64,000 nt of DNA from an uncultured Candidatus Saccharibacteria bacterium (GCA_964412115.1 CAYPMM010000001.1:764-64763); one strand, 5' to 3'. Shown: positions 39,137 to 52,899, counted from the stretch's first letter. Notes: generated by a model from the sequence alone, not told the origin. Numbers and translations are program-made.

Positions 39137-40417
39137 GTAGCCGATGGCCGACAAAACACCCAGAACCAGCGCCGACAAAAACCAAAATGTTGATGAGCCC
39201 GTAAACGATGACGCGCCCACGGCGGCGGTTTGAGTGTTGTTTGCCGAAAACTCGATTTCATCAACCGCGGCTTGAGCCTCTGACGGACCTTCCTGGGGTT
39301 TAACCTCAGGGCGCGCAAAACTCACCCTTGCCGTAAACCTTCCGTTTCCGGGACTTTCGACACCAATTTTTGTCACGCCGTCAGCGTCGTGGAAACTTTC
39401 GTCCGGCCTTAATGCTCCAGAATACGCCAGCTCGCCAGCAACGTCGCCTCTGGGATATAAAAGATAAGAAGATCCGGACGAAAAAAATTCAATTCCAGAA
39501 ATTTCCTCCGGAATAATCAAATATGTCTCTGCATCTATTAAGGTGTTTTTCGGAAAATAAAACGCTTCGTTTCCGTTGGAAAGCGCCCAGTACGAAATGT
39601 CAATTTTAAAATCCGTGGTATTTGCGATCTCAACCCATCCGCCCTTACCCGGTTTTACTTCGGAAATTTTTACTCCGTTTGAAATAACATTTACGGCTAC
39701 GGAAGCGCTCACCGAAATGCCGGAAATAGCCGAGTTGAAATAAACAATATACTTGCCCGGATAATTATACGAGTGGCTCGCAAGCCTTCCTCGAGCCGTC
39801 GTTCCGTCGCCGAATGTCCACAAAAAATCAGCGCTTTCAATCGGTTTGTTTTCCAAACCAAAAAGAACCCCTTCAAAATTTATTTGCGCGCCTGTTATGG
39901 CGACTCTGTCTCCTCCGATTATTTTCGCGCTAAATTCGTTTTTTGAAATACTTGCCGCTGGCGCGACTGGCCCTAAATCTTCCGACGAAGACTGGCTCTG
40001 GCCTTCTTGCTGACTTTCCTCTTCTTGCTCGCCAACAACAATTTGTTGCGCAACCTGCCAAGATTGCCCCGACTCTCTTCCAACCGCCCTTACGGTCAAA
40101 GTATAAATGCCGGCAGTTGAATCACGATAATAAAAAGTGCGATTGGCCGTATTTTTACTCATTACCGTGCTTGCCGGATTTCCTGATGAATTCAAAAATT
40201 CACCGGTTGACGAAGTTGAAGAAAATTCCAAGTCAATTGTTTCGGTTGTGTTTGTTTTCTCTCCGCTTGCGTTCTGAGACTGGATTGTTAAAGACCCCGA
40301 AATCTCATTCGGCAAAATAGTCTGCTGTTCGGTCGTGAAAACAAATTTGGCAGTAGGGTCTGCGGCAAAAATAATTGCCGGTAAAATAAAAGCTAAAATA
40401 AAAACCACGAGCTTCAT
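39107..40417 (-). CDS. secreted/cell-surface protein with PKD-like and lamin-tail (LTD) domains and C-terminal TM anchor
   Basis: Signal peptide MKLVVFILAFILPAIIFA; FTFGDGTTARG...HSYNYPGKY (PKD); WVEIANTTDFKIDISYWAL (LTD); C-terminal hydrophobic helix + KRKSSL. Confidence 0.55.
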   Translation of the reverse strand: MKLVVFILAFILPAIIFAADPTAKFVFTTEQQTILPNEISGSLTIQSQNASGEKTNTTETIDLEFSSTSSTGEFLNSSGNPASTVMSKNTANRTFYYRDSTAGIYTLTVRAVGRESGQSWQVAQQIVVGEQEEESQQEGQSQSSSEDLGPVAPAASISKNEFSAKIIGGDRVAITGAQINFEGVLFGLENKPIESADFLWTFGDGTTARGRLASHSYNYPGKYIVYFNSAISGISVSASVAVNVISNGVKISEVKPGKGGWVEIANTTDFKIDISYWALSNGNEAFYFPKNTLIDAETYLIIPEEISGIEFFSSGSSYLLYPRGDVAGELAYSGALRPDESFHDADGVTKIGVESPGNGRFTARVSFARPEVKPQEGPSEAQAAVDEIEFSANNTQTAAVGASSFTGSSTFWFLSALVLGVLSAIGYLFVKRKSSL

Positions 40418-40457: not shown

Positions 40458-40485
40458 TTGTAGTTTTGGCTGAATCATGTATAAT
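40458..40485 (+). promoter_or_regulatory. sigma70-like promoter for small plus-strand gene
   Basis: TTGTAG-16nt-TATAAT, followed by AAGGAG RBS and ATG at 40520. Confidence 0.5.
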
Positions 40486-40519
40486 ATATCCAGTTTGTTC
40501 CGCCAAAAAAGGAGAAGGA

Positions 40520-40780
40520 ATGGGCCTCAGGAGAATCTCAAAAGAAGTTGCAAACCGACATCCCAGCAAGACCGCCGATGAAGTTTTTGTAGGAAACCAT
40601 AGTTTTGAAGATTTTAAGCGCTTGCGATGGGCCACGAAAAGAGTGTCAGCCGATATCCCTTACGAAGCAAACGGCCATCCAAGCGACCGCCACGTCTCTC
40701 CAGTGTACGTAAAGAGCTGGGAGATTAAAGAAGACCCGCTCCTTACCCCCGAAGAGAAAAGAGCGTATCTCAACTCCTGA
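40520..40780 (+). CDS. hypothetical small protein (86 aa)
   Basis: ATG at 40520 7 nt after AAGGAG; only plus-strand gene inside a 14-kb minus-strand block. Confidence 0.4.
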   Translation: MGLRRISKEVANRHPSKTADEVFVGNHSFEDFKRLRWATKRVSADIPYEANGHPSDRHVSPVYVKSWEIKEDPLLTPEEKRAYLNS

Positions 40781-40790
40781 AAACGTCTTC

Positions 40791-42803
40791 CTAGAATTTT
40801 AAGCTCTCGCCCGGTTTTAAAATCTTGCCCTTGCCCGCCTCAATGCTTTTGCTTTGGGCGGGTTTTTTTTCTTCATCTTTTGCCGGTAATTTTTCGTCCG
40901 TTTTCATTGTTTCTTTAAGAGCTTCGCGAAGCTCGTCTAACTGCGATTTTTTATCTTTTTTCATTTCCTGCCACGCCTTGGCTTTTAACTCGTCAAGCGA
41001 CAAGGTTTTTTCGGGCGCCTGCCTTCTCACTACCGGCTCACCTCCTTGCAGAGGAGCCGGACGCGGAACAAATTGCCGCGCTGGCGCCTGACGCGTAGGA
41101 CGTTCGGCGCGCTCAGGCGGACGGGCTGGAAATTCGGAACGAGGCCTGTTTGCGGCGGCAACATTTGTGCTTGCGGGTCTATCTGCGTTTGCGGGTCTGC
41201 CTGCGCCTGAAGGCGCGCTTGGGCGAGGGGTTCTGGAAGTGTTTGAAGAAAACTCAATACCCAAAAGTTCAAGGCCTCCGCCAAACTCTTCCCTATGGCC
41301 TTCGGTTGAGGGAAGCGGTCTCAACGGACGCAGTTCACCGGCCTCAATTTTTTTCAAACAATCAGAGCAGTAAACCGGCCTTCGGCCGTCCGGCTTGAAC
41401 GGCAGAGAGGCCGTTTTCTGGCAAATCCAGCAGGGTGTTTCAAATTTTTCTCCTTTTGAAAATGCCGTAGCCGAACCTACCGCTACTTCTATTTCCGACT
41501 CTTGGGCCCCAGGCAAAGAACTGGCCCATTTTTTAATGTCGGCCTCGACATCCAGCGCGGGCCTGGCATATTGTTTACGCGAAACCTCGATTATTTCTTC
41601 CGGCGGCGCCATTTCGGCGGTAATCGCGAGCGGAGGCAGGGTTGCCGCCGAAAAAGGCCGGCTGGCCACGCCATTTACCATCAGCTTCAGATAAATCGCG
41701 TAATTAGGAAGATCCACCAAATCCTGGATTTCAAATTCGGGCGTTACCTCTTTTTCCAAAAACTCGGCATCAGTTGCCCCCACCCGAAAAAAAATCATGG
41801 TACCCACGTTTCCAAAAACCGCATCGCGAACCCTGGTGGAAGTTTCGGTCACAAGCTGTCCCACATACTGGTGGGCAAGAACCAAATTAAGGCGGTATTT
41901 TCTGGCTTCGGAAAGAATGGAAGCAAAAGCTTCGGTGGTAAAATTCTGAAACTCGTCAACATAAAGATAAAAATCCTTGCGCTCCTCCTCCGGAATCCTT
42001 ACCCGCTCCATGGCCGCCAGCTGAACTTTGGTAATGAGCATCGCGCCCAAAAGCGCGGAATTATCTTCGCCTATTCTTCCTTTAGAAATGTTAGCCAGAA
42101 GTATTTTTCCCTGATTCATCAACTCAAAAACTTCAAAGCTTGATTTCGGCTGTCCGACAATGTTGCGGATGAGCGAGGTGGAAAGAAACTGCCCGACTTT
42201 GTTTTGAATCGGCACAATCGCCTCATTCCTGAATCTCGGTTCCCACACTTCGTATTCATTGAGCCAAAAAGCGCGCACAACCGGGTCGGTGACGTTGGCG
42301 ACAATTTTTTGACGATAGTCCCTGTCGGTTAAAATTCTTTGGATGCCGAGAAGCGTGGTGCCCGGAGTTTCAACCAAAGCCAAAATGCAATTTTGCAAAA
42401 TGTATTCCATTCTAGCCGACCATACATTCGCCCAGATTTTGGTGAAAATTCCAATTAAACCTTGCGCCACAAGGTGCTTGTATTTTTTGTCGGGAACTTC
42501 CAAAACATTAAAACCGAGCGGATAATCGGTATCAGCCGGATTGAAGTAGATAACATCTTTGGCCCGTTCTTTCGGAATTTTGGTCAAAAGGTCTTCAACG
42601 GTCTCGCCGTGCGGGTCAACGAAACAAAGCCCGCGCCCGGAGTTGATGTCTTGGATGGCCAAATTTTTAATAAGCACCGATTTTCCGGTGCCGGTTTTTC
42701 CGACAACATACATATGCTGGCGGCGATCGGGAACAGAGATGCCAAAAATTTTATTTTCGCCCCTGAAATTGGTCTTTGCGAAATACGCGGTATCACGAGC
42801 CAT
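40791..42803 (-). CDS. VirD4/TraG/TraD-like coupling ATPase (type IV secretion DNA-binding domain protein) with C-terminal zinc ribbon and disordered P/R/A- and K/E-rich tail
   Basis: Walker A VVGKTGTGKS, Walker B LYVDEFQ; CWICQ...CSDC ribbon; paralog at 43986-45476. Confidence 0.6.
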   Translation of the reverse strand: MARDTAYFAKTNFRGENKIFGISVPDRRQHMYVVGKTGTGKSVLIKNLAIQDINSGRGLCFVDPHGETVEDLLTKIPKERAKDVIYFNPADTDYPLGFNVLEVPDKKYKHLVAQGLIGIFTKIWANVWSARMEYILQNCILALVETPGTTLLGIQRILTDRDYRQKIVANVTDPVVRAFWLNEYEVWEPRFRNEAIVPIQNKVGQFLSTSLIRNIVGQPKSSFEVFELMNQGKILLANISKGRIGEDNSALLGAMLITKVQLAAMERVRIPEEERKDFYLYVDEFQNFTTEAFASILSEARKYRLNLVLAHQYVGQLVTETSTRVRDAVFGNVGTMIFFRVGATDAEFLEKEVTPEFEIQDLVDLPNYAIYLKLMVNGVASRPFSAATLPPLAITAEMAPPEEIIEVSRKQYARPALDVEADIKKWASSLPGAQESEIEVAVGSATAFSKGEKFETPCWICQKTASLPFKPDGRRPVYCSDCLKKIEAGELRPLRPLPSTEGHREEFGGGLELLGIEFSSNTSRTPRPSAPSGAGRPANADRPASTNVAAANRPRSEFPARPPERAERPTRQAPARQFVPRPAPLQGGEPVVRRQAPEKTLSLDELKAKAWQEMKKDKKSQLDELREALKETMKTDEKLPAKDEEKKPAQSKSIEAGKGKILKPGESLKF

Positions 42804-43050
42804 ACTTTAATTATCTCAAATTTATGTCAATTAATAAAATGTTAGACCCCCTTCCGTAGAAGGGGGTCTTGATACGTGGAGCGGCCAGCCGCCTTGGCGA
42901 AACCAACTTGGTTTTTCCCCAAGGGTTTTCGAAAATTCTCGACCGGCCGCCCCGAAACAAAAAGAACAAATGATTGCGGGGGCTATCGCTTGACCTGGCA
43001 TAGCCTCGCCCCTTTTCAATGTCGGTTACGATCCAGGTCCCGACTTATGC
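42804..43050 (-). ncRNA. candidate structured GC-rich 5' leader / cis-regulatory RNA upstream of VirD4-like gene
   Basis: ORF-free, GC-rich vs ~40% flanks; long-range helix GCGGCCGG/CUGGCCGC enclosing three hairpins; terminator-like hairpin GACCCCCUUCUACGGAAGGGGGUC + U-rich 35 nt before start codon. Confidence 0.35.
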
Positions 43051-43053
43051 TTG

Positions 43054-43081
43054 TATTGTAGCAAATACACAGGATTTGTCA
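43054..43081 (-). promoter_or_regulatory. near-consensus sigma70 promoter driving the structured leader
   Basis: minus strand TTGACA-16nt-TACAAT. Confidence 0.55.
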
Positions 43082-43202
43082 AGTCCTTGTAATGGTTCAA
43101 TAGCTTGTAACCACCCAAAAAGCCAAAAAATGGCTTAAAATAAGGAGTTTTGGGTTAATTAAAATTACTAAAATTAAAACAAAATTAAAGTTAAGACAAC
43201 AA

Positions 43203-43238
43203 GATAACAAAACATTGCGATAGCAACGTTTTGTTATC
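43203..43238. repeat. palindromic element A (GATAACAAAAC-N14-GTTTTGTTATC, core GCGATAGC); possible bidirectional terminator/operator
   Basis: 11-bp perfect inverted arms, A-tract before and T-tract after; near copy at 43869-43904. Confidence 0.5.
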
Positions 43239-43284
43239 TTTTGTGTTTTTAGCCCTGTCCACTATTTTTGGCTCTATTCACTTT

Positions 43285-43854
43285 TTAAAAAAGTTCAAAC
43301 TTCTCTTTAAGTTCGGCCTCATTGGTAATATATTTTGCCTTTATATAGCGAACGTATCTCGAAACTTCGAAAAATTCAGCCACAAAGTCAATTTCGTCTT
43401 CACATTCGTAAGGAGAAACAAAAACGCTTCTTTGAAACTCCAGCAAACCCAATTCTTTGACTTTTTTACGAAATGCCTCGCGCGCCGGTTTATTTTTTTC
43501 GGGGATATCATAAATCACAATATGCCAATCGCCTTTCCATGCTTTCGGTTTTTTAACTTTCATACTTTCAAATTCATATTGTAAAACTCTCTTTTTTCCA
43601 TCTTCTGTAAGAACAATCGTGGTCGTGTCGTCATCGTTATCCCTGAAATCCACTAACCTGTCTTCATAAAATTCGCGGATTTTGGACCAAAGATAACTTT
43701 TATTAATTTCTTTCCAGTCATGCGCACAGGCTCTTAAAATTTTAAAATATCCGTTTGGCGAAGGCGAAAAGCCGAGCATAATGCCGGTTGTCAGACGAAG
43801 CAAAATTCTTTGTTTTAAAAACGCTGTTTTGTTCATAAACCAATCATAAATCAA
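43285..43854 (-). CDS. hypothetical protein with Cas2-like (PaaX-C-like) ferredoxin-fold segment
   Basis: WHIVIYDIPEKNKPAREAFRKKVKELGLLEFQRSVFVSPYE resembles Cas2 beta1-alpha1-beta2 (YDI...K.L...G.R.Q.SVF); TTG or downstream ATG start uncertain. Confidence 0.4.
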   Translation of the reverse strand: MIYDWFMNKTAFLKQRILLRLTTGIMLGFSPSPNGYFKILRACAHDWKEINKSYLWSKIREFYEDRLVDFRDNDDDTTTIVLTEDGKKRVLQYEFESMKVKKPKAWKGDWHIVIYDIPEKNKPAREAFRKKVKELGLLEFQRSVFVSPYECEDEIDFVAEFFEVSRYVRYIKAKYITNEAELKEKFELF

Positions 43855-43868
43855 TCATGGTGTAAAAA

Positions 43869-43904
43869 GATAACAAAATCAAGCGATAGCATAATCTTGT
43901 TATC
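43869..43904. repeat. palindromic element B (GATAACAA-N20-TTGTTATC, core GCGATAGC) immediately upstream of Cas2-like gene
   Basis: same orientation and core as element A. Confidence 0.5.
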
Positions 43905-43926
43905 ATTTTTAAAATATATGTTTTAG

Positions 43927-43970
43927 GTGTGTTCTAAATGTGTTTTAAATATTTTAAGTGTGTTTTAAAA
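43927..43970. repeat. three imperfect direct repeats GTGTGTTYTAAA (iteron-like)
   Basis: copies at 43927, 43939, 43958 between element B and upstream gene stop. Confidence 0.4.
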
Positions 43971-43985
43971 CAAAATATCATGTTT

Positions 43986-45476
43986 TTACACAATAGGCTC
44001 GGGGGGCGAGTCGGAAGGCTCGGCGGCCAGCTCCTTGTTCGCGTCCTCCTCAACACTCGGTGTTGGGATCCCGGAAACACCGAGTGTTTTCCTGGGCGCA
44101 GGAGAAAGTCCCAAAAGCTCGTTTTCTACTTCGATTATTTTTTTCTTTACCTCGTCAACAGGGGCGGCAAAATTTTTACGGCTGAACTCAATTATTTCGT
44201 CCTTAAACGATGCGTGCGCCGGCGGCAGAACTTTCAAAGTTTCGGCAGAAAACGGGTCGGCGGTATCTCCGTCAATCGTCATTTTTATATAAAATTGCTG
44301 CATCCCGAGATTAACCATATCTTTAGCCTTAAACACCGGCGTCATTTCGTTTTCAAGTTTGGCGGCATCATCCCCGCCCACTCTAAATACAACAATCGTC
44401 CCGACATTTCCCAAAACCGATTCTCTGACATGGGGAATCAATTGGCCCATAAACTGGTGGGCCACGGTAAGATTGATGCCGTATTTTCGCGCCTCCGAAA
44501 AAATATTTACGAAAGTGGTCGTAACCAGATTATGAAACTCGTCGACGTAAAGATAAAAGTCCTTTCTTGACTCTTCGGGCATCGCCGCCCTGGCCATTCC
44601 GGCCTGTTTTATTTTGGTGATGAACATGGAGCCGAAAAAACTGGAGTTCTCCTCGCCCATTTTGCCCTTCGAAAGGTTTATCAAAATAATTTTTTTCTCG
44701 TTCATTATATTCTCAAGGTCAATCTTGTTTTCCTGCTGTCCAAAAATATAGCGCAAGTACGGATTGGCCAAAAATTGCCCCAATTTATTTACAAGCGGAA
44801 TTATGGCGTCGGTATCAAACTTTTCAGACCAGTCGGCAAACTCAATCGCCCAGAACCGCTTGACCATTTCGTCTTCAATATATTCAATAACTTTTTGGCG
44901 GTATTTACGGTCGGTAAGCATTGAAATCATCCCGCGCATTGTCGCCATCGGAAAATCAAGAAGGGCGAGCACGGTGAAGCGAAACACATGCTCAAGGCGA
45001 GGCGTCCAGTTCGCGCCGAATTGCTTTTCCATTACCTCAATTAACCCCTGCGCCACCTGATGTTTAAGGTCGGGATTTACGTTTTGCAGAGGATTGAAAG
45101 AAATCGGCCATTCGGTGTCCGACGGGTCAACAATTATTGTATCTTTGACGCGTTCCTCCGGGATGAAGTTCAAAACCTCTTCAATTACGTCTCCGTGCGG
45201 GTCCATCAGGCAAATCCCGTGGCCGAATTGAATGTCCTGGCGAAGCATAAGTTCCAGAAGTTTTGATTTGCCCACGCCGGATTTCCCGACGATATACATA
45301 TGCCGCCTGCGATCGCGGCGTTTTATGCCGAAAATAAATTTTTTTTCTTCAAGCCCGGCGACATAGTTAGTACGCCCGAAAAAAACGACTTCTTTCGGGT
45401 CAAATTGCTTATATATCGGGAGTTCCGGAGGAGGCGGCGCGTATTTTATTATTTGTATCTTTCCTTCTCGCGCCAT
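43986..45476 (-). CDS. VirD4/TraG/TraD-like coupling ATPase paralog (short form)
   Basis: Walker A IVGKSGVGKS, Walker B LYVDEFHN; same family pattern as 40791-42803. Confidence 0.6.
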   Translation of the reverse strand: MAREGKIQIIKYAPPPPELPIYKQFDPKEVVFFGRTNYVAGLEEKKFIFGIKRRDRRRHMYIVGKSGVGKSKLLELMLRQDIQFGHGICLMDPHGDVIEEVLNFIPEERVKDTIIVDPSDTEWPISFNPLQNVNPDLKHQVAQGLIEVMEKQFGANWTPRLEHVFRFTVLALLDFPMATMRGMISMLTDRKYRQKVIEYIEDEMVKRFWAIEFADWSEKFDTDAIIPLVNKLGQFLANPYLRYIFGQQENKIDLENIMNEKKIILINLSKGKMGEENSSFFGSMFITKIKQAGMARAAMPEESRKDFYLYVDEFHNLVTTTFVNIFSEARKYGINLTVAHQFMGQLIPHVRESVLGNVGTIVVFRVGGDDAAKLENEMTPVFKAKDMVNLGMQQFYIKMTIDGDTADPFSAETLKVLPPAHASFKDEIIEFSRKNFAAPVDEVKKKIIEVENELLGLSPAPRKTLGVSGIPTPSVEEDANKELAAEPSDSPPEPIV

Positions 45477-45477
45477 A

Positions 45478-46014
45478 TTAAATCGCGGATAATTCCTCTA
45501 AAGCTTTTCTATAGGCGCCGAGGCTTTTCATTGTTTCCTCGTGGCTCGGGCGGAAATTCGGCTCATGCGCTATGCTGTTTCTTAGTTTGTGCGCTTCCCA
45601 GATATCGTTTAAGACGGGTAACTCTCCTGGAGCAAGAGACCTAAGCCGTTCGGCCAGATTTTTACCCAAAAAACCGAGCCGGCCCATCGTTTCTTCAAGA
45701 AGAATGTCGGCCTCAATGATAGCCATGGCGTAACCCTGCGGGCCGGAAGTTTTGATTTTATTTACAATCGAGTCCCAGCGGCGTCTTGTTCTTAGTTTTA
45801 CCTCTTCTTCAAAATTAGCCTGTTTTTGAGGCGCTTGGTAAGCCCTGCGTCCTTCAAGAACGTATAATTTTTTCCTTAAGGGAAATGTTTTTATAAAGAC
45901 CCATGCCGAGAGCGCGAGAAGCGTCGGACCCAAAAAAATCAGGATAATTCTGATTCCGGAGTAAAGCCTTACCCAAAAACCCGCGTCAAACAAAAACCAA
46001 TCCGGAAAGTTCAT
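45478..46014 (-). CDS. membrane-anchored protein with HEPN-like Rx4H motif (DUF4145-like)
   Basis: Start set at internal ATG 46012-46014 to avoid overlap with upstream gene; one TM helix; C-terminal ...HKLRNSIAHEP. Confidence 0.35.
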   Translation of the reverse strand: MNFPDWFLFDAGFWVRLYSGIRIILIFLGPTLLALSAWVFIKTFPLRKKLYVLEGRRAYQAPQKQANFEEEVKLRTRRRWDSIVNKIKTSGPQGYAMAIIEADILLEETMGRLGFLGKNLAERLRSLAPGELPVLNDIWEAHKLRNSIAHEPNFRPSHEETMKSLGAYRKALEELSAI

Positions 46015-46042
46015 ATATTTATGATAATCAATAACACCGGTT

Positions 46043-47749
46043 TTATCCAACCTCGCGATTATAACATTCCTCGCAGTATAAAATATCCGGCTTTTCGGGC
46101 GAAAACGGGCTTGTAACTTCTTTTTCGCATTTAGCGCATTTACGGTTATAAAATTTAGGCGGATTGGTTTGGGCGAGCCGGTCCAAATGACGGCATTCCT
46201 GGCACTTTCGGGGTAATGGAAAATTCCACTTACGCAAAAGCGCGAGCTCTCCTGAAACAATTCTGAATCCCTTACCGCAAGCAGCACATCCGATAATTTC
46301 TTTGAGAATGTCGTCAGAAACGTCTTTAATGTCGTCCGGCAAGTCTTCGGATTTTTTTGTTATTTTATATTTTTGCGGTTCGTCGTCTTTCCACCGCCAG
46401 CCGGAGGCCAAAACTTCGTTTTTGGTTTTCGGAAAATAATACATCGCCCACGATTCGTTGTAATCAAAAAAACTCAAATTATACGGCAAAAACTCGCCGT
46501 ATTTCCAAACCTTTCCTTTTGAGTCCGTATAAGGATTTTTGTTCATGTCTTCAATAATCCGCGCGCGCAATTTCAAGTAATCCTCTTTTGAATACTGCTT
46601 ATTTAAAATACAATAAGATTTTTTAAAAAGGCCGACGCATCCGAAAATGTGCTGGCAAAAACCGGTCATCATTGAATAATCAATATCCAAGGTGCCCGAC
46701 AAAACACAGCCGAAACTAAATCTGACCGAATCCGCGCCTTCGCCCACGGTTATACATTCATAAATCCGCTGAGCATTGTTGCCCCATTCGGTATAGTCAT
46801 AGCAATCTTTTGTGGGACCCATTGAAATGAATTGTGCGAATCGGCAGTCCTCCGCCCCGGAAACTATATAGCTGTCTTTTACATTTTTAGACCAATAAAT
46901 ATAATCGCCCGAAGAATTTACGGCGTTTTGGCTGTGCATAAATTTTTTGGGGTAACGAAGCCAAAATTCTTTGGTTTTTTGTTTCAGTTTCTCAATTTCG
47001 CCGTATGAAGAAAGTTTGAATTTTGATAGTTCTTTTTGATAATCTTCTTTTGAATATGATTCGTTAAAAATATGATATTTCTTGCGCCTTAGACCGACAC
47101 AGCCGAAACAATCCGAGCATCCGGCCAAATCGCGAGAAAAATAAACATTAAAACAGTCTTCGCAGTCATCAGAAAAATGAACATTTGAATTTCTGGATGA
47201 ATTTATGTTTTCATAACAAAGCTGAATTTCTTCGGCAGAATAACAATCCATGGAATCTTTTGAATAATTTATAGTGTTGGAGTAGTAGCAATTTTCGTCA
47301 AAGTCGGCATCAAAAATCATATAGCAATTTTTTAGGTTTCCGGCGTGATTTACATATTCGCTGTTCACAAGCGTTGAGTGGTTGTTAAAAAGACCCGGGT
47401 AAGGTACTTTAAGCGATAATTCTTTTAATTGTTCAAAAAAACTGCGATTCGGGTCATAGTCCTGCCCGAATTCCATTCCGTCCCACTTGTCCGACCACCA
47501 GCACTTGGTGCAATAAACCTTAAACGGCTTGTCGGGAGAAATGTTGGAGAGTATGTCCTTGGCGCATAAACCGCATTTTCTTTTGTAAAGTTTCCGCGCG
47601 TTTCTGAACATCATTCTCCTTTGCATCCTGCACTCCGGGCAAAAAGTCGGCGCGGGGACTTTTATGCGCGCGTAAAATTCAAAATCCGCGGGTTCAATCG
47701 TGAACTCGGCTTTGCAATTCTGACAGGTTTTTGTTTCGGATTTATTCAT
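46043..47749 (-). CDS. Cys-rich zinc-ribbon protein, paralog 2 of 3
   Basis: 568 aa; N-terminus ~70% identical to paralogs; ATGA start/stop overlap with upstream RelE-like toxin gene. Confidence 0.6.
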   Translation of the reverse strand: MNKSETKTCQNCKAEFTIEPADFEFYARIKVPAPTFCPECRMQRRMMFRNARKLYKRKCGLCAKDILSNISPDKPFKVYCTKCWWSDKWDGMEFGQDYDPNRSFFEQLKELSLKVPYPGLFNNHSTLVNSEYVNHAGNLKNCYMIFDADFDENCYYSNTINYSKDSMDCYSAEEIQLCYENINSSRNSNVHFSDDCEDCFNVYFSRDLAGCSDCFGCVGLRRKKYHIFNESYSKEDYQKELSKFKLSSYGEIEKLKQKTKEFWLRYPKKFMHSQNAVNSSGDYIYWSKNVKDSYIVSGAEDCRFAQFISMGPTKDCYDYTEWGNNAQRIYECITVGEGADSVRFSFGCVLSGTLDIDYSMMTGFCQHIFGCVGLFKKSYCILNKQYSKEDYLKLRARIIEDMNKNPYTDSKGKVWKYGEFLPYNLSFFDYNESWAMYYFPKTKNEVLASGWRWKDDEPQKYKITKKSEDLPDDIKDVSDDILKEIIGCAACGKGFRIVSGELALLRKWNFPLPRKCQECRHLDRLAQTNPPKFYNRKCAKCEKEVTSPFSPEKPDILYCEECYNREVG

Positions 47750-48042
47750 TTTTGTTTTCGCAATAATCGCTTATAGATATTATCGCGCGCGTCAGCAATA
47801 AGCAATTTAATGGTGTGATTGGCAACAAATTTAAAGCCGACTCGATAATCACGGGTGATACGAAAAGAAAGCACGCCATGAAGCGGAGCCCCAAGACGTT
47901 TGGTATGCAATCTAGAATCAAAAGGATTTTTTCGAAGAATTTCTATAAGAGCCCCTAATTTATCTTGAACCTTACTTGGCAGATTATAGACATCTTTTTT
48001 GAAATCCGCCTCATAAATTATCTCATTTGACGGAACGGACAT
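47746..48042 (-). CDS. type II toxin, RelE/ParE family
   Basis: ...LHGVLSFRITRDYRVGFKFVANHTIKLLIADARDNIYK; start at internal ATG overlapping antitoxin by 20 nt (track start 48069). Confidence 0.6.
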   Translation of the reverse strand: MSVPSNEIIYEADFKKDVYNLPSKVQDKLGALIEILRKNPFDSRLHTKRLGAPLHGVLSFRITRDYRVGFKFVANHTIKLLIADARDNIYKRLLRKQK

Positions 48043-48247
48043 GGCGCAAAAATGCTTCCTTTGTGGCAAAGTGATACATTGTGCCTCGAGAAGACATTCG
48101 TTTGAGCATTTTTTTTACGAAAGCGGGTTTGTATTCACCTTCGGGGTCGCGATATCCCGCGAGAAGCAGATTTTTAACAACCTCCATATCCTTTCGGAGA
48201 ACAGAAACATCTTTATTAAGTTTTTTTACCAGAGTTTGGGTGGTCAT
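48023..48247 (-). CDS. putative antitoxin (74 aa) of RelE/ParE pair
   Basis: small ORF immediately upstream, overlapping the toxin. Confidence 0.4.
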   Translation of the reverse strand: MTTQTLVKKLNKDVSVLRKDMEVVKNLLLAGYRDPEGEYKPAFVKKMLKRMSSRGTMYHFATKEAFLRHVRSVK

Positions 48248-48276
48248 ATAACTTTATAATAACAAAAATACAAATT

Positions 48277-49959
48277 TTACGCAATTTCTTGTTTATAACA
48301 TTCCTCGCAGTAAATATACGGAAACTCGTCGGCGGCGTAAACTGAATCCACAGCTTTGTTGCACTTTTCGCACGCGCGAGAATAGAACTTTAAATGGTCA
48401 GCGATGAACCGAAGGCGTTGTTTATGCCGCTCAAAGGGGGCGAGCCGTGGAATTGGGATGTTAAAACGGCGGTAAAACGCAAGCTCTATCGGTATAATCC
48501 TATACCCATTCCCCGACGCTTTACATTTCAAAACTTTTTCTAAGATGTCGTCCTTAACATCACTAATGTCATCCGGAATGACGTAATCAGAAAAGACAGG
48601 CGACTCGGCTTTATATCTACTCCAAGCCAAGCCGGTCTTTTCGGCGTCATCCTCGTTGAGAGGGAAATACTCATAAGCAACTGTTTCGTTGTACGCAAAT
48701 GGAGATAACTCAAACGGCAAAAATTCTCCGTACCGATATTGCCGACCCGCCTTATCCACATACGGCATGTCATTCATGTGTTTGCGAATTTTCGTCGTAA
48801 GATTTTCGTATTCTTCTTTTGTGTATCGTTTGTTTAAAATACAATAGTCCTGTTTTTTCAAATTCATTGAGCCGAAACAATTATGACTTGCGGAAATGAA
48901 ATAGGAATATTCAATATTCGTACATCCCTCAAGTACTCCAATCGAAAACCTAACGTTGGCAATCTGATGTACTCCCCCCATCAATTCATATAAGAGTTCG
49001 CCACCCCACACGGATGTTGTGTCATAAGCGTCTTTAACCTGAAGAGTAAACAAAATATACTTTGAATCCTCAGTCTTTTCGGTAAGCCAACAAAAACTGC
49101 AACGTTTTGATTCATTGATGAAGTTGCCTTTTGAATTAACAGAACGTTCTATAAAAACGGCTCTCTGCGGCCGTGACTTCCAAAAGTCAAGGACCCGTTT
49201 TTTTACTTCTTCCAACCGAGAATACGACCCGTTTAGGTTCTCCCTTAGAAAACGCTCAAATTCATCTTTTGAAACCGGTTTGTTGAATATATGGTATTGT
49301 TTGTTCCGCAAACCGCTACAACCAAAAACATTAGAACAATTTCTGCAGTCAAAACAGAAGTATGAGTCGTGACAATCATAACAAAGCTTTGAATAAAAAA
49401 CCTTGTAGCAATTTTCGGAAAGCGTCGCTTCATATCCAAACTCCCCTTGTTGAAACCAGTATGTGTCAAAAGTGTCTTTGGTTTTAAGCGCATATTGGTT
49501 ATATGCGCCGTCCTCATTATCATGGCCACCAAAATTAAGATAGCAATTTTTTTCGTCTGTTTCGTAGTTGCACCATGGGCTATTCACCATATTTACCTGA
49601 AACAAAGCGAGGTGAGGAATATCGCGCTGTAGTTCTTGAAATTGAAGCAGGAACGATTTTGAAAAATCATAATTTCTGCCATATTGCATCGGATCCCACT
49701 TGTCCGAATAAAAACAGGTTGGGCAATATACCTTAAACGGCTTATCCGGCGAATACATTGTGATAACGCTTTTATGACAAAGATCACATGACCGTTTATA
49801 GAGCGTGCGTTCATTTCGCCACGCAAGCCGTCTTTGCAGTCTGCACTCCGGGCAAAAAGTCGGCGCGGGGACTTTTATGCGCGCGTAAAATTCAAAATCC
49901 TCGGGTTCGATTGCGAACTCTTGTTTGCAATTCTGACAAATTTTAATCTCTTTTTGCAT
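48277..49959 (-). CDS. Cys-rich zinc-ribbon protein, paralog 3 of 3
   Basis: 560 aa; 60-nt stretch (49841-49900) identical to 47628-47687. Confidence 0.6.
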   Translation of the reverse strand: MQKEIKICQNCKQEFAIEPEDFEFYARIKVPAPTFCPECRLQRRLAWRNERTLYKRSCDLCHKSVITMYSPDKPFKVYCPTCFYSDKWDPMQYGRNYDFSKSFLLQFQELQRDIPHLALFQVNMVNSPWCNYETDEKNCYLNFGGHDNEDGAYNQYALKTKDTFDTYWFQQGEFGYEATLSENCYKVFYSKLCYDCHDSYFCFDCRNCSNVFGCSGLRNKQYHIFNKPVSKDEFERFLRENLNGSYSRLEEVKKRVLDFWKSRPQRAVFIERSVNSKGNFINESKRCSFCWLTEKTEDSKYILFTLQVKDAYDTTSVWGGELLYELMGGVHQIANVRFSIGVLEGCTNIEYSYFISASHNCFGSMNLKKQDYCILNKRYTKEEYENLTTKIRKHMNDMPYVDKAGRQYRYGEFLPFELSPFAYNETVAYEYFPLNEDDAEKTGLAWSRYKAESPVFSDYVIPDDISDVKDDILEKVLKCKASGNGYRIIPIELAFYRRFNIPIPRLAPFERHKQRLRFIADHLKFYSRACEKCNKAVDSVYAADEFPYIYCEECYKQEIA

Positions 49960-49975
49960 GTTCTCTTATTCGCAC

Positions 49976-50033
49976 GCCTGCCTGTCGGTAGGCAGGAATT
50001 AGGGATATATTAAAACGTGTTGATATATCAACA
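49976..50033. promoter_or_regulatory. hairpin CCTGCC-N8-GGCAGG and 16-bp perfect palindrome TGTTGATATATCAACA upstream of paralog 3
   Basis: palindrome overlaps a possible TTGATA-16-TATATC promoter on minus strand. Confidence 0.4.
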
Positions 50034-50049
50034 TATTTTGTTTTAAGAA

Positions 50050-51393
50050 TTATTTCTTTTCTTTCGGCTCCGCGTCCGGTATTTTCAGACCGGGGACTTC
50101 CGATTCCTCGCCGAAAATGGGAAGGCCCGCTGGCGGGCCCATGCGTTTGGCCTCCATCCTTTTGATAAAGGGCGCTGTCAGCACAAGAAAAGACGGCGGA
50201 TGAAAAAGGGTGGCAATGCCTTCGGAGGTAATAATCGCCGGTTTTGACTTTTTGTCAAAATAGAAAAATTGCGATTCTATGATACTGCCAATTTTCGTCT
50301 CCGGCGGCATGGCTCTTTTTATGAAATTAATAAGGATTCTTTGTTTTCTGGCCTCCTCGCGTTTTTTGTAGAAAAAGTGCGGAAACTTCAGCCAATTAAC
50401 CATGGTTCTGGTCGGAATTACCGGAATAAACCAATTTTGAGTCGGAATGGAATACTGGGCGAAGGCCCCCCTTACTCCGCGGTAAGGAGTCTGGCGGTTA
50501 AAAATGGCGCGGGGAGCCAAATAAATGTAGCGTATTATTGTTTCAAAAGGCGCGTTGGAGGCGTTTTTGCCGACCGCTTTCATCACTTCTTCTTCCCCCG
50601 GAGAACGGAAAAGAGTAAGCGCCTCCATGCTTGCGGCGCCCTGAATCCTTTTTGAAGCCGATTTTTCTTTCAACTCCGCGGTGAGCGCGTTGTTTATTTT
50701 CTGCCATTCGACCGGATCGGCCGGCCTTATTAAAATCTGGAGCCACAGATGCTCTTCTTTTTTCAGTTTCGCCAAAACCTCAACCAAAACCGACATCGGG
50801 TCAAGAGATTTTTCTTCTTCAATCGCTTCAAAAAACGGATATGTTTTAAAAGGATAGGCGTTGTTTCGGCCGAGAGACAATTCGAGTCCGAAAAGATCCA
50901 AACCCATTTTGTAAAGGTCGGTTGTCTTGGCCGGCAGGCGTTTTACGTAGTCATCAACCTCAATCATTTCTATTTCTTTGTAGTTGCCGTAAAAAGCGGC
51001 CTCCACTATGTTTTTGTATTTGGCCGGCGTCTTGACGTAAAAATGCGTTTCGCCGTTAAGCTGGGCAATCTCCAAAGACCACCATTCAGTCACCTCCCCC
51101 TCCCAATATTTTTCAATAAAATTTTCGGGACTATTCCGGAGGCTGTAAAGCTTATTTAAAATCTGTTCCATGGCTTTGGGCGATTTGCGTATTTCGCGCG
51201 GTATTCTTATCTCCAGAAGCGACCAGCGCATTTTGTCTTTGTAAATCATCATCCGGTAATACATCCAAATGTTCTTCAATAAAACCGCCGAAAACACAAA
51301 AAGCCAAAGCCACCAAAGCCTGGCTACAATCGTAAAGCCGGGTATTAACGCCGTCTTATATAAGATTTGAAGGGTTTCCCTTACTTCCGGCAT
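50050..51393 (-). CDS. hypothetical protein (447 aa, N-terminal TM helix)
   Basis: long ORF with typical codon usage, no recognisable motif. Confidence 0.5.
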   Translation of the reverse strand: MPEVRETLQILYKTALIPGFTIVARLWWLWLFVFSAVLLKNIWMYYRMMIYKDKMRWSLLEIRIPREIRKSPKAMEQILNKLYSLRNSPENFIEKYWEGEVTEWWSLEIAQLNGETHFYVKTPAKYKNIVEAAFYGNYKEIEMIEVDDYVKRLPAKTTDLYKMGLDLFGLELSLGRNNAYPFKTYPFFEAIEEEKSLDPMSVLVEVLAKLKKEEHLWLQILIRPADPVEWQKINNALTAELKEKSASKRIQGAASMEALTLFRSPGEEEVMKAVGKNASNAPFETIIRYIYLAPRAIFNRQTPYRGVRGAFAQYSIPTQNWFIPVIPTRTMVNWLKFPHFFYKKREEARKQRILINFIKRAMPPETKIGSIIESQFFYFDKKSKPAIITSEGIATLFHPPSFLVLTAPFIKRMEAKRMGPPAGLPIFGEESEVPGLKIPDAEPKEKK

Positions 51394-51401
51394 TACTTAC
51401 A

Positions 51402-52427
51402 TTATGCCAGATGAAAGCGCCCGTCGGAAAGCTTTTTAAAGTGAGTTCTGTTTTGAAGGTTTATGGCGATGGTGTTGTCTTTTACGTGGCGCTCCTGCTT
51501 GACAAATTTAATAAGCTCGTCTTTGGACATCGGGCCGCGTTTCTCAAGCACCGCTTTGACTATGTCTTTGACCGTCCCCGCCTGATAGCCCCAGCTGGAC
51601 AAGGCGTAAAGACCACGTCCGACAAGAACAAAGCGCTCGTCTTTAATAAGCTCGTTGTGAACCGTCTGCACGTGGGCGTGTTTTGAAGCCAGTTTCTCAA
51701 TGGATGAAGCCACTTCGCGAAAGTGCAGAGGAGAGCCGTGTTTTTTTAAAACAAGGTAGGCAAAATCGCGCATACCAGAAGGTCTGACTAAAGACGAGGA
51801 AGCAAGGCCCCACTCGCCAAAATTATTGGAAGTAATATTCTTTGAAATGCCGAGCCGCGCGAAAACGGCCTCCTTGCCGAGCGTATGGCCAAATTCGGAT
51901 TCAACGTGGGAACGAAATCTTTTTTCCATTTCGTCTTTAATTAAAGGTTCGTCTCCCAAATTGGCGCAAAAATTAGCTATTGATTTATGGGCGTCTTTTG
52001 ACGCTTTAAAATCGCTTGTCCAGCGGTGGTAAAAATCGGTATCGGCTCCGAGACGCTCAAACGGCCCGCCAAGAGACAAAAAGAAATAAACGTAGTTTTT
52101 TCCGTCTTCATCTGATGCAAAATGCGCCAGCGCCTCGTTTTCACGCCAGACACCGCCCCTTAATTCAAACTCTTTGGCAAGCTCTCCGAAAATCTGATCA
52201 GACGCTCCGAAACCCGGGCTTTGGCGCATTTTATTTATAGCCGCGGCTTCAATCTGGCGCACCCGCTCGCGGGTAATCTTATAGGTCTGGCCTATTGATT
52301 CCAAAGTCTGCCTTTTAGAGCGGGCTCCGATGCCAAACCGGCGCTCAACAACGTCGCGCGCTCGGCCTGAAATTTCTTTTAAAAGCGTTTTGGCTAAATC
52401 TTCAAAATTATTTGCGGTCTTGACCAT
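51402..52427 (-). CDS. sigma-70 region 4 domain protein with two C-terminal HARE-HTH-like winged helices
   Basis: LESIGQTYKITRERVRQIEAAAINKMR (region 4.2); RFVLVGRGLYALSSWG and KKLSDGRFHLA HARE-HTH-like. Confidence 0.5.
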   Translation of the reverse strand: MVKTANNFEDLAKTLLKEISGRARDVVERRFGIGARSKRQTLESIGQTYKITRERVRQIEAAAINKMRQSPGFGASDQIFGELAKEFELRGGVWRENEALAHFASDEDGKNYVYFFLSLGGPFERLGADTDFYHRWTSDFKASKDAHKSIANFCANLGDEPLIKDEMEKRFRSHVESEFGHTLGKEAVFARLGISKNITSNNFGEWGLASSSLVRPSGMRDFAYLVLKKHGSPLHFREVASSIEKLASKHAHVQTVHNELIKDERFVLVGRGLYALSSWGYQAGTVKDIVKAVLEKRGPMSKDELIKFVKQERHVKDNTIAINLQNRTHFKKLSDGRFHLA

Positions 52428-52870: not shown

Positions 52871-52899
52871 ATTATATATCAAAATGTAGTGTTTGTCAA
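52871..52899 (-). promoter_or_regulatory. consensus sigma70 promoter with embedded inverted repeat CTACAT...ATGTAG
   Basis: minus strand TTGACA-17nt-TATAAT. Confidence 0.55.

Follow-up and report, generated by a model that had tools for sequence, protein, structure and literature searches.

What is a pair of T4CP-like ATPases doing among the minus-strand genes at positions 40,791 to 52,427 of a 64,000-nucleotide stretch from an uncultured Candidatus Saccharibacteria bacterium (the whole stretch is called the window here), and is the locus an accessory, defence-associated block, as an earlier note made from the sequence proposed, or a fixed part of the chromosome? Of 3,035 Patescibacteria genomes, 2,918 have VirD4-type T4CP homologues, at about two each, and only 148 of 5,713 lie near virB4 (PMC12102498). 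The T4SS loci of these bacteria usually lack a T4CP (PMC12102498, PMC10633639), and stand-alone TrsD-like N-domain proteins are common (PMC12102498).

Gene content of the locus

The reported gene content is confirmed. An ORF check and profile searches of the window placed the listed genes at their coordinates on the minus strand (Table 1). In the direction of transcription the order is secD-secF-(327-aa insertion)-sigma_r4/HARE-HTH-DUF8128, two Cys-rich genes between which a RelE-like TA pair is inserted, then TM/HEPN-short T4CP-like ATPase-(PaaX/Cas2-like insertion)-long T4CP-like ATPase. The earlier note had described the block as co-directional, but this does not set it apart; the minus-strand run reaches past secDF as far as nusG, to 62.9 kb, and is interrupted only by 61323-61874(+). 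The small plus-strand ORF, 40466-40780(+), is probably not a gene; it is 33% identical in locus L001, against 49-93% for the adjacent genes and 88-93% for both ATPases. The locus is bordered by secDF, NUDIX, DHFR, thyA, tmk, L11 and nusG and, at its opposite end, by a glycosylation island.

Table 1. Features of the locus in window coordinates
Feature	Coordinates (strand)	Description
secF and secD	53951-54850 and 54847-56172 (-)	conserved upstream neighbours anchoring the cluster in the chromosome; 40/55 loci
promoter-like TTGACA-17-TATAAT	52871..52899 (-)	upstream of sigma-r4/HARE gene; 12/12 consensus matches
sigma-r4/HARE protein, 341 aa, DNA-binding	51402..52427 (-)	Sigma70 region 4 aa 15-69; HARE-HTH aa 220-279
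DUF8128 protein, 447 aa	50050..51393 (-)	N-terminal hydrophobic helix aa ~15-40; cytoplasmic alpha/beta body
Cys-rich paralog, 560 aa	48277..49959 (-)	paired zinc ribbons at both ends; Cys-rich beta-solenoid core
putative antitoxin, 74 aa	48023..48247 (-)	overlaps toxin gene; DUF2683 E 9e-4, weak; local insertion
RelE/YoeB/Gp49-superfamily toxin-like gene	47746..48069 (-)	stop codon overlaps start codon of the 568-aa Cys-rich gene (ATGA); local insertion
Cys-rich paralog, 568 aa	46043..47749 (-)	zf_Tbcl N-terminus; CxxC-x17-CxxC ribbon C-terminus
HEPN-like membrane-anchored protein, 178 aa from ATG	45478..46014 (-)	TM aa 17-44; cytoplasmic helical domain, RNxxxH
short T4CP-like ATPase, 496 aa	43986..45476 (-)	soluble; Walker A and B
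PaaX_M/Cas2-like small protein	43285..43854 (-)	insertion between both ATPase genes; absent from earlier gene list
terminator-like hairpin, 18-bp stem	43201..43240 (-)	3' of PaaX-like gene; conserved in L001
promoter-like TTGACA-16-(TG)TACAAT	43055..43082 (-)	for long ATPase; conserved in L001
GC-rich hairpin and T-run	42844..42869 (-)	in ~250-nt leader of long ATPase gene
long T4CP-like ATPase, 670 aa	40791..42803 (-)	nucleotide-binding domain, CxxC-x17-CxxC ribbon, ~185-aa low-complexity tail
third Cys-rich paralog, 568 aa	33374..35080 (-)	outside block; CYTH, glycosyltransferase and PKD genes between

The stop codon of the HEPN gene is separated by 1 nt from the start codon of the short ATPase gene; the run also contains, at other junctions, an ATGA overlap and a gap of 8 nt. 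The promoter-like site upstream of the sigma-r4/HARE gene, a perfect match to the sigma-70 type, marks the probable start of the transcription unit. The stem of the hairpin in the leader of the long ATPase gene is retained in L001 despite altered sequence, and no Rfam family matched it. The protein of the first gene matches Sigma70_r4 (E 3e-11) and one HARE-HTH (E 2e-9) as claimed, but the second HARE-HTH of the earlier description is weak (E 0.026), with a weak second winged-helix at aa 285-328.

The membrane-anchored, HEPN-like protein has a single hydrophobic segment and the motif RNSIAH, which fits Rx4-6H with a polar residue after the Arg. Matches to HEPN families come from its orthologues; the window protein itself matched no database family and no PDB sequence. 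HEPN_Swt1 is matched by 10 of 24 orthologues (best E 2.5e-5), and others match RiboL-PSP, Cthe2314, DUF4145, Ymh and HepT. The 24 all share H72, R75 and N76, and at least 90% of them have H80. A few orthologues lack the His or the Arg. The RelE-like toxin of the proposed TA pair matches phrog_1213, 'RelE-like toxin' (E 2.4e-7), and Gp49 (E 2e-3), but its match to TIGR02116 (25.8 bits, E 9e-6) falls under the cut-off of 51.8; the 74-aa ORF upstream overlaps it.

Conservation of the gene order

Gene neighbourhoods were compared in 80 loci, one per GTDB species, the best 80 of 150 by similarity to the short ATPase; the fractions are conditional on that gene and refer to Parcubacteria-like genomes only. 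The TM/HEPN gene is directly upstream of the short ATPase gene in 70 of 78 loci and is tightly coupled to it. DUF8128 follows upstream in 69 of 74 loci and the sigma-r4/HARE gene in 55 of 63, straight after secF in most genomes. Where upstream sequence is sufficient (55 loci), secDF is present in 40 and the exact five-gene order in 34, and independent gene calls also bear out this order. Of 67 loci, 50 have a Cys-rich gene and 10 the long ATPase gene in the next downstream place; usually one to seven Cys-rich paralogs and often the second ATPase complete the conserved order. Genes past secDF and past the arrays are not conserved among loci.

Only the TA pair and the PaaX/Cas2-like, 327-aa and PKD genes are variable, each being found in 1-5 of the 80 loci, and these are local insertions. 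The PaaX/Cas2-like gene is present in four loci, the 74-aa antitoxin gene in one and the RelE-like gene in L021 alone. Identity of the short ATPase remains at 68-93% across Niyogi-, Giovannoni-, Jorgensen-, Lipton-, Ryan-, Nomura-, Sung- and Brennerbacteria; such evolution is far slower than is typical of defence or mobile genes.

The core of the region is a chromosomal cluster fixed across the Parcubacteria/Paceibacteria lineage and not an accessory island. The accessory reading fails because the order secD-secF-sigma_r4/HARE-DUF8128-TM/HEPN-ATPase is kept beside secDF across the 80 species-level genomes. This is the outcome of the neighbourhood comparison that the earlier note had itself named as contrary to its view, and the same fixed order, with the identity of the short ATPase across candidate phyla, speaks against a defence-associated block. 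The statement that relaxase, integrase and transposase are absent was borne out by profile searches of the 64-kb window, and tRNA searches found no tRNA. Flanking signatures of a mobile element were likewise not found in the window, and the locus is not patchy, its position being kept in dozens of species. The shared order within one class, chiefly that of secDF and sigma/HARE, could partly reflect descent and not function.

The two Cys-rich proteins of the block are paralogs as claimed (46043-47749 and 48277-49959; 42% identity, E 1e-155). Such proteins carry four zinc ribbons at a uniform length of ~567 aa, and no signal peptide or recognisable secretion signal was found in them. The C-terminal ribbon of 46043-47749 is of the same CxxC-x17-CxxC type as that of the long ATPase. 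Copy number ranges from 0 to 7 per locus. Their place also varies: in the window, L002, L004 and L005 they precede HEPN, elsewhere they come after the ATPase, and the third copy in the window sits about 8 kb from the cluster. For 97% of the paralogs the closest relative is in another genome and not in the same array. The Cys-rich genes form ancient paralog groups, and their zinc-ribbon type is that of the long ATPase.

The ATPases and the DUF8128 protein

That the two ATPases are T4CP-like paralogs holds. They are 45% identical over 434 aa (40791-42803 and 43986-45476; E 1e-136) and match the Pfam families TrwB_AAD_bind, TraG-D_C and T4SS-DNA_transf, the first two near full-length (TrwB_AAD_bind E 7e-10 and 4e-13, the alignment covering profile positions 11-318 of 387). 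Walker A (GKSGVGKS in the short paralog, GKTGTGKS in the long) and Walker B (YLYVDEF in both) are intact, and are aligned in TrwB, the best PDB match by sequence. The T4CP of a conjugative locus on an actinobacterial (Embleya) plasmid shares ~30% identity (E 1e-56) with the short ATPase; that locus has the order PrgI-VirB4-like ATPase-T4CP-relaxase-NlpC/P60. The zinc ribbon and disordered tail ascribed to one ATPase were found in the long paralog, as a ribbon at aa 453-485 (zf_Tbcl_2 E 2e-10, TIGR04272 E 5e-11) followed by ~185 aa that are P/R/A- then K/E-rich. Ribbon and tail are retained in 22 of 25 orthologues.

By sequence, both ATPases are homologues of genuine coupling proteins and share the nucleotide-binding domain of VirD4, TrwB and TraD, but they differ from these in domain structure and setting. 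Neither has a hydrophobic segment, and thus the N-terminal TM domain of T4CPs is missing; hydrophobic helices are confined to the separate DUF8128 and HEPN proteins. Relaxase and mating-pair-formation genes were absent from the 64-kb window in profile searches, and none is annotated within 10 kb on either side in L083 according to precomputed Pfam assignments. In the 80 loci, for 79 of which (all but L083) the window's own proteins were the only queries, no relaxase or T4SS gene lies nearby, and the position by secDF is fixed. Two paralog lineages are conserved here, only one of which has the ribbon and tail.

The statement that T4SS structural genes are lacking needs qualifying, as the 447-aa DUF8128 protein has a fold like that of the VirB4/TrwK N-terminal domain. 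Its profile had no match among PDB sequences and no sequence-level similarity to VirB4. DUF8128 and the ATPase reproduce the two-domain order of VirB4, but here the halves are separate genes (50050-51393 and 43986-45476) with the HEPN gene between them, and DUF8128 bears its own membrane helix. Both ATPases score higher on VirD4/TraD than on VirB4 profiles, and the VirB4-type models CD1110 and TrbE match the short one weakly (E ~1e-4). For this reason 'split VirB4' describes an architecture and not a proven origin.

Counterparts of the two halves are joined in a phage protein. In the family phrog_5156, DUF8128 matches profile positions 45-212 (E 2.4e-8), and both ATPases match positions 386-811 (E 2e-58 and 4e-56). 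In gp156 of Bacillus phage G, a single protein of 825 aa, aa 31-256 align with the DUF8128 profile (hhalign probability 96.4%) and aa 381-758 with the short ATPase (E 1e-42). Because such halves are fused in gp156, DUF8128 and the ATPase are taken as halves of one machine, and DUF8128 is proposed to anchor the ATPase in the membrane and to supply its N-terminal half. The phage version differs from the cluster in being phage-encoded and fused and in lacking HEPN and Cys-rich partners, and identity is only 20-28%. A match to EccE-EccC of the ESX/type VII system was weak, and EccB, EccC and EccD genes and WXG100 substrates are absent here.

Alternative explanations and a proposed mechanism

The best explanation overall, which we hold to be somewhat better than an even bet, is a conserved cluster encoding a split VirB4/VirD4-like motor. 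It is very improbable that the locus is an accessory island for defence or conflict, gained horizontally, in which a HerA/FtsK-type ATPase is the sensor or motor, a HEPN RNase is the effector, and sensing falls to the TA pair, the Cas2-like protein and the variable Cys-rich proteins. Such an island would account for the matches of both ATPases to the PADLOC model mad8 (E 3e-14 and 4e-16, the same ATPase superfamily) and weakly to HerA models, for the HEPN-like domain, the RelE-like and Cas2-like genes inside the block, the GT4-conflict matches of the neighbouring glycosyltransferases and the varying Cys-rich copy number. However, the synteny largely refutes it. The locus is conserved as core with a slowly diverging short ATPase, insertions of the TA and Cas2-like genes are rare (1-4 of 80 loci), the Cys-rich paralogs are ancient orthologous groups and not recent expansions, and mobility genes, tRNA and flanking signatures are lacking. 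PADLOC returned nothing beyond generic Cas2 and sigma models for the remaining block proteins, with no match for the HEPN, DUF8128 or Cys-rich proteins and no other MADS component. Also improbable, if less so, is that no functional module exists and that unrelated housekeeping genes (a transcription factor, a membrane protein, an RNase and a DNA pump such as an FtsK substitute) stay adjacent only through slow rearrangement of small genomes. All loci do come from one class-level lineage, secDF and sigma/HARE have no obvious mechanistic tie to a T4CP, and the Cys-rich genes shift position, with one copy well outside the cluster. Against this, the phage fusion ties at least two of the genes functionally, the 1-nt and 8-nt spacing and the overlaps of start with stop codons indicate units of co-translation, one rare zinc-ribbon type occurs in both the long ATPase and the Cys-rich proteins, and the flanks are not conserved.

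An unlikely reading, though the strongest of the alternatives, makes both ATPases the missing T4CPs of the oriC-proximal VirB4/VirB6/pilin system of Patescibacteria. DUF8128 would dock them on the inner-membrane complex as the VirB4 N-terminal domain does, and the Cys-rich paralogs would be secreted effectors, or adaptors, delivered to a host cell. The homology to genuine T4CPs, the scarcity of T4CPs in Patescibacteria T4SS loci (PMC12102498, PMC10633639), the paralog arrays adjoining the ATPases, the gene annotated 'VirB-like' next to gp156 in phage G and the likeness of DUF8128 to a VirB4 domain that contacts VirB3 and VirB8 in R388 are all consistent with it. However, T4CP homologues are in more genomes than VirB4 (2,918 against 2,417 of 3,035), and in Saccharibacteria the t4cp homologue is reported as non-essential and the T4SS as essential (PMC12102498). 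No T4SS gene was found within 10 kb in the 80 loci with the window proteins as queries, and the Cys-rich proteins, without secretion signal, with four ribbons, of uniform length and in ancient groups, are unlike typical effector repertoires.

For the split motor, the function would most likely be that of a membrane-docked, ATP-driven module for the recruitment or translocation of a substrate, probably nucleic acid. The earlier view of a DNA-translocation-like module and not a conjugative element is still the best general reading, and that note as a whole is partly supported. Past the point that the two halves belong together, we infer every step. The split motor also has points against it: a few HEPN orthologues have lost the His or the Arg, and the reported dispensability of the Saccharibacteria t4cp homologue (PMC12102498) counts here too. 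DUF8128 would hold a hexamer of the soluble short ATPase at the cytoplasmic side of the membrane, and the two together would restore a two-domain motor of the VirB4 type. Beside it, the membrane-anchored HEPN protein may be a dimeric adaptor or an RNase that acts on the cargo. The adaptor has a possible parallel in Agrobacterium VBP, a protein with nucleotidyltransferase and HEPN domains that recruits VirD2-T-DNA to VirD4 and works physically with the coupling ATPase (PMC3953389). VBP is soluble, has the nucleotidyltransferase domain and is encoded away from virD4, whereas the window protein has a membrane anchor and, of the two domains, only a HEPN-like one with RNxxxH kept, and shows no detected sequence similarity to VBP. 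The zinc-ribbon/beta-solenoid proteins and the ribbon-bearing long ATPase would bind a common partner, most likely nucleic acid, and may be the cargo or adaptors for it. With ATP hydrolysis, the polymer would then be recruited or moved to a membrane channel, which may be the oriC-proximal T4SS, whose locus usually has no coupling protein, or some other channel. The cluster supplies candidate partners for the unexplained 'orphan' coupling ATPases of ultra-small bacteria.

Gene content and conserved order of the cluster

The genes described here are predicted from an ORF map (Table), and the map and domain matches confirm the gene content listed in an earlier note on this DNA. One detail of that list is only partly retained: the "double HARE-HTH" protein does contain HARE-HTH, but the second copy is weakly supported (E 0.026). 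The run of minus-strand genes is unbroken from the PKD gene through the block. The co-directionality is thus real, but it is not specific to the block because it extends via secDF to nusG. Two small ORFs are unlikely to be real genes. The plus-strand ORF is 33% identical to its counterpart in the comparison locus L001, whose neighbouring genes have 49-93% identity and whose two ATPases have 88-93%. The 62-aa ORF was rejected since it sits in the leader of the long ATPase, between promoter and hairpin.

Features of the cluster and its surroundings in the window
Feature	Coordinates	Strand	Remark
Polysaccharide and glycosylation island	1-39136		about 39 kb
Third Cys-rich paralog	33374-35080	minus	568 aa
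PKD/LTD surface protein	39107-40417	minus	ORF map
Small ORF	40466-40780	plus	probably not a gene
Long ATPase	40791-42803	minus	670 aa; ORF map
Leader of long ATPase	42804-43082	minus	promoter-like site and hairpin
62-aa ORF	42831-43019	minus	probably not a gene
PaaX_M/Cas2-like protein	43285-43854	minus	ORF map; absent from the earlier list
Short ATPase	43986-45476	minus	496 aa; ORF map
TM/HEPN protein	45478-46014	minus	membrane segment and RNSIAH motif; ORF map
Cys-rich protein	46043-47749	minus	ORF map
RelE-like toxin	47746-48069	minus	
Small partner of the toxin	48023-48247	minus	
Cys-rich protein	48277-49959	minus	ORF map
DUF8128 protein	50050-51393	minus	447 aa, unknown; ORF map
Sigma70_r4 and HARE-HTH (sigma/HARE) protein	51402-52427	minus	ORF map
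Sigma-70 promoter match	52871-52899	minus	TTGACA-17-TATAAT
327-aa protein	52896-53879	minus	unknown; then secF, secD

A scan with the short ATPase, using one genome per GTDB species, found 150 relatives, of which the best 80 were taken as comparison loci. These share 68-93% identity with the short ATPase and come from many Parcubacteria candidate phyla, the nearest being a Niyogibacteria MAG. The loci were picked by ATPase similarity and all are Parcubacteria-like; "Saccharibacteria" in some record titles may be a default label. Every window protein was compared with the 80 loci by tblastn. Counting only loci whose contig reaches far enough, the TM/HEPN gene is immediately 5' of the short ATPase in 70/78 loci and DUF8128 is among the next upstream genes in 69/74. 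The sigma/HARE gene lies upstream in 55/63, as do secD and secF in 40/55. The exact order secD-secF-sigma/HARE-DUF8128-HEPN is kept in 34/55 loci. The gene next downstream of the short ATPase is Cys-rich in 50 of the 67 loci (arrays of 1-7) and the long ATPase in 10. Orthologues of the long ATPase were identified in 25 of the 80 loci. The same gene order was recovered in a 729-kb contig with independent gene calls and precomputed Pfam labels.

The earlier note had called this block accessory and DNA-translocation- or defence-associated, and had itself set such labels against a gene order conserved beside secDF. That order is what we find, so that neither "accessory" nor "defence" can be maintained. 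We conclude with high confidence that the cluster is core. The view that it is not a conjugative element stands, as the 64-kb window contains no integrase, relaxase or transposase. The window has no tRNA either. The cluster is flanked by the glycosylation island on one side and by NUDIX, DHFR, thyA, tmk, L11 and nusG on the other.

Only a few genes vary between loci, namely the RelE-like pair (1/80 loci by tblastn), the PaaX/Cas2-like gene (4/80), the 327-aa gene (2/80) and the PKD gene (5/80, close relatives only). The G+C content is ~0.50 over the long ATPase gene vs ~0.40 in the stretch that runs from the PaaX-like gene up to where the short ATPase begins, consistent with insertion of the PaaX-like gene together with its flanks. 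The RelE-like/antitoxin pair lies inside the operon and the stop codon overlaps the start of the Cys-rich gene (ATGA). The antitoxin-toxin-Cys-rich arrangement is shared with just one of the 80 loci, the Ryanbacteria locus L021 (13419-14858). The pair could travel with the Cys-rich gene, or this could be coincidence. The 327-aa protein, between secF and sigma/HARE, carries a hydrophobic segment at its N-terminus and matches no family; among the loci it recurs, at ~31% identity, in L004 and L006 alone, both Niyogibacteria.

In the window, as in its closest relatives (L002, L004 and L005), the Cys-rich genes lie between DUF8128 and HEPN, whereas elsewhere they follow the ATPase; this position is a local rearrangement. 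The long-ATPase orthologue of locus L079 (6466-8031) is found between sigma/HARE and DUF8128 and not downstream of the Cys-rich array. Two further loci (L014 and L017) have a long-type paralog on the opposite strand that lacks the ribbon.

The island beside the cluster encodes many GT4/GT2 transferases, three PMT_2-type membrane glycosyltransferases, a B12-radical SAM enzyme, a C-methyltransferase, a DegT aminotransferase, an asparagine synthase and a flippase. Several of its transferases match the "GT4-conflict" model. The ~39 kb are a large share of a genome that is probably under 1 Mb.

The ATPases and their probable DUF8128 partner

The short and long ATPases share 45% identity (E 1e-136). 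Each matches TrwB_AAD_bind, TraG-D_C and T4SS-DNA_transf, retains the Walker A and B motifs, and lacks any hydrophobic segment. The long paralog alone carries the zinc ribbon (CxxC-x17-CxxC; zf_Tbcl_2 E 2e-10, TIGR04272 E 5e-11) and a ~185-aa low-complexity tail, as the earlier note had proposed for one of the pair. Ribbon and tail are present in 22 of its 25 orthologues. By sequence, the top match in the PDB is TrwB, and the two Walker motifs align. The short ATPase also finds type IV coupling proteins (T4CPs) in plasmids at 25-38% identity, including an Embleya locus with the order PrgI-ATPase-T4CP-relaxase-NlpC/P60. Small Bacillus plasmids encode a soluble DUF87 ATPase after a 272-aa hypothetical gene and near a relaxase-like gene. 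On sequence grounds, the window ATPases are homologues of genuine coupling proteins. Two other functions were considered and not adopted: FtsK-like chromosome pumping, as the FtsK_SpoIIIE profiles are unmatched, and type VII-like secretion, for which the Ecc profiles are unmatched and EccE3 is a weak structural match.

Searches of Pfam, NCBIfam and PADLOC gave no match when the DUF8128, HEPN and 560-aa Cys-rich proteins of the window themselves were the queries. The 447-aa protein is recognisable as DUF8128 only through the precomputed PF26449 labels of its homologues. A profile search of a representative library places the family in 3,046 clusters at 50% identity; the best 150 of these are all stand-alone proteins of ~230-550 aa with no added fusions. 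The AlphaFold model is confident (pLDDT 82.7, pTM 0.79) and has a hydrophobic N-terminal helix (aa ~15-40) followed by alpha/beta domains. At E<=1e-3, an independent Foldseek search with this model yields TrwK chains and nothing else. The rmsd values are large and the TM-scores low, so the likeness is at the level of the domain fold and the hinge angles differ. The DUF8128 profile has no match among PDB sequences.

The two proteins are joined in phage. In phrog_5156 (824 positions) DUF8128 matches the N-terminal part (positions 45-212, E 2.4e-8) and both ATPases match the C-terminal part (positions 386-811, E 2e-58 and 4e-56). In gp156 of Bacillus phage G (825 aa), a member of this family, the DUF8128 profile aligns with aa 31-256 (hhalign probability 96.4%, E 1.2e-9) and the short ATPase with aa 381-758 (28% identity, E 1e-42). 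Of the evidence for joint action of the two window genes, this fusion is the strongest. It also shows that the DUF8128 and ATPase pair follows the VirB4 layout of N-domain plus ATPase. The two probably form one machine. At the phage G locus (87999-97132) the "VirB-like" gp155 lies upstream of gp156, and an HNH endonuclease follows. CP-51-like Bacillus phages encode related ATPases that are mis-annotated as MsbA-like permeases.

The pair nevertheless departs from both known families. The window ATPases lack the membrane domain and the relaxase or T4SS linkage that define T4CPs. The DUF8128 and ATPase pair is not the single polypeptide of VirB4 and lies outside VirB4 as defined by sequence. For these reasons we class the pair as a variant inside the VirB4/VirD4 ATPase superfamily that belongs to neither family.

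The HEPN-like and Cys-rich proteins and expression signals

The stop codon of the TM/HEPN gene is 1 nt from the start codon of the short ATPase. In an alignment of 24 orthologues W10, A32, D33, G47, H72, R75 and N76 (alignment numbering) are invariant, and H80 of the RNxxxH motif is kept in at least 90%. HEPN_Swt1 is matched by 10 of the 24 (best E 2.5e-5), and further orthologues match RiboL-PSP, Cthe2314, DUF4145, Ymh and HepT. A search with the window protein found 23 close relatives only, with no family label, and its profile gave chance-level matches only among PDB sequences. Positive charges follow the membrane segment, and the HEPN domain is accordingly predicted to be cytoplasmic by the positive-inside rule.

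The two Cys-rich proteins of the block are 42% identical. Their family has >6,000 matches, every one from Patescibacteria and annotated as "hypothetical", with lengths of about 567 aa. In the model (pLDDT 80.8) a Cys-rich beta-solenoid core is flanked on both sides by paired zinc ribbons, and the structural matches of this model are to generic beta-helices only. The C-terminal ribbon is of the same type as that of the long ATPase. Among 105 copies compared, 97% are closer to a copy in another genome than to their own array (median identity 59% vs 43%). The paralogs are thus ancient, maintained groups and not recent expansions. A third full-length paralog, 43-45% identical to the block pair, is separated from the cluster by CYTH, glycosyltransferase and PKD genes. 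A Cys-rich gene stands at the equivalent site in L001, after the glycosyltransferases of that locus.

The expression signals are consensus matches only. Directly after the 327-aa gene and upstream of sigma/HARE lies a perfect match to the sigma-70 promoter consensus, and the genes from there to the short ATPase have short or overlapping intergenic gaps. A strong hairpin is found 3' of the PaaX-like gene. The long ATPase has a separate promoter-like site and a ~250-nt leader, which ends in a GC-rich hairpin and T-run 40 nt 5' of the start codon. In L001 (2964-3431) this hairpin is kept and the stem sequence differs (CCCCCTTC/GAAGGGGG vs CCGCCTTC/GAAGGCGG). Rfam has no family at gathering scores in the whole window, and only chance matches at E<=1 in the leader. 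The hairpin may be an attenuator or other leader RNA.

A proposed mechanism and its channel

What the cluster does we infer from its conserved order, the fold and phage fusion of DUF8128, the T4CP homology, the common ribbon type, and the membrane segments found in DUF8128 and HEPN and in neither ATPase. DUF8128 would tether a hexamer of the soluble short ATPase at the cytoplasmic face of the membrane and so rebuild a VirB4-type motor. The HEPN protein beside it would be an adaptor or an RNase that processes cargo. A precedent for an adaptor is Agrobacterium VBP: its HEPN domain serves for dimerisation, and the protein both binds VirD2 and VirD4 and acts as recruiter of the T-complex (PMC3953389). 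The ribbons of the long ATPase and Cys-rich proteins would bind a common partner, most likely nucleic acid, and ATP hydrolysis would recruit or move this polymer to a channel. In this wording, the translocation or recruitment mechanism is tentative, at somewhat less than even odds.

The channel may be the oriC-proximal T4SS, in whose loci a coupling protein is usually missing (PMC12102498, PMC10633639). However, T4CP homologues occur in 2,918 and VirB4 in 2,417 of 3,035 genomes, and in Saccharibacteria the T4CP homologue is dispensable while the T4SS is essential (PMC12102498). The cluster might instead be an unrecognised, near-universal membrane machine of Parcubacteria, independent of the canonical T4SS. 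In such a machine a split motor of VirB4 architecture would move nucleic acid across or to the membrane, the HEPN RNase would process cargo, and the ancient zinc-ribbon paralogs would be cargo-specific adaptors. One example of such cargo would be RNA or DNA that comes from the host and serves nucleotide salvage. We regard this reading, cargo included, as unlikely.

That Patescibacteria abound in orphan VirD4-type genes is already published. A phylum-wide survey from 2025 reported that 96% of genomes encode VirD4-type ATPases, with about two in each; it analysed the neighbourhoods of virB4 only and left open the role of the orphan genes (PMC12102498). Within the literature accessible to us, no paper mentioning "DUF8128" was found, and searches for DUF8128 and for CPR with coupling protein and zinc ribbon returned no description of this neighbourhood. 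Comparison of the window with 80 other genomes gives the orphan ATPases a defined and conserved set of candidate partners: DUF8128 (VirB4-N-domain-like, and fused to the ATPase in some phages), a membrane-anchored HEPN-like protein, a ribbon-bearing second ATPase and Cys-rich arrays. The question of the orphan ATPases can now be tested on named genes. A block with accessory-looking content (a TA pair, HEPN, a Cas2-like gene and ATPases) can nonetheless belong to the core of a lineage, and a near-universal, unexplained ATPase pair of a major uncultivated lineage has been given testable partners.
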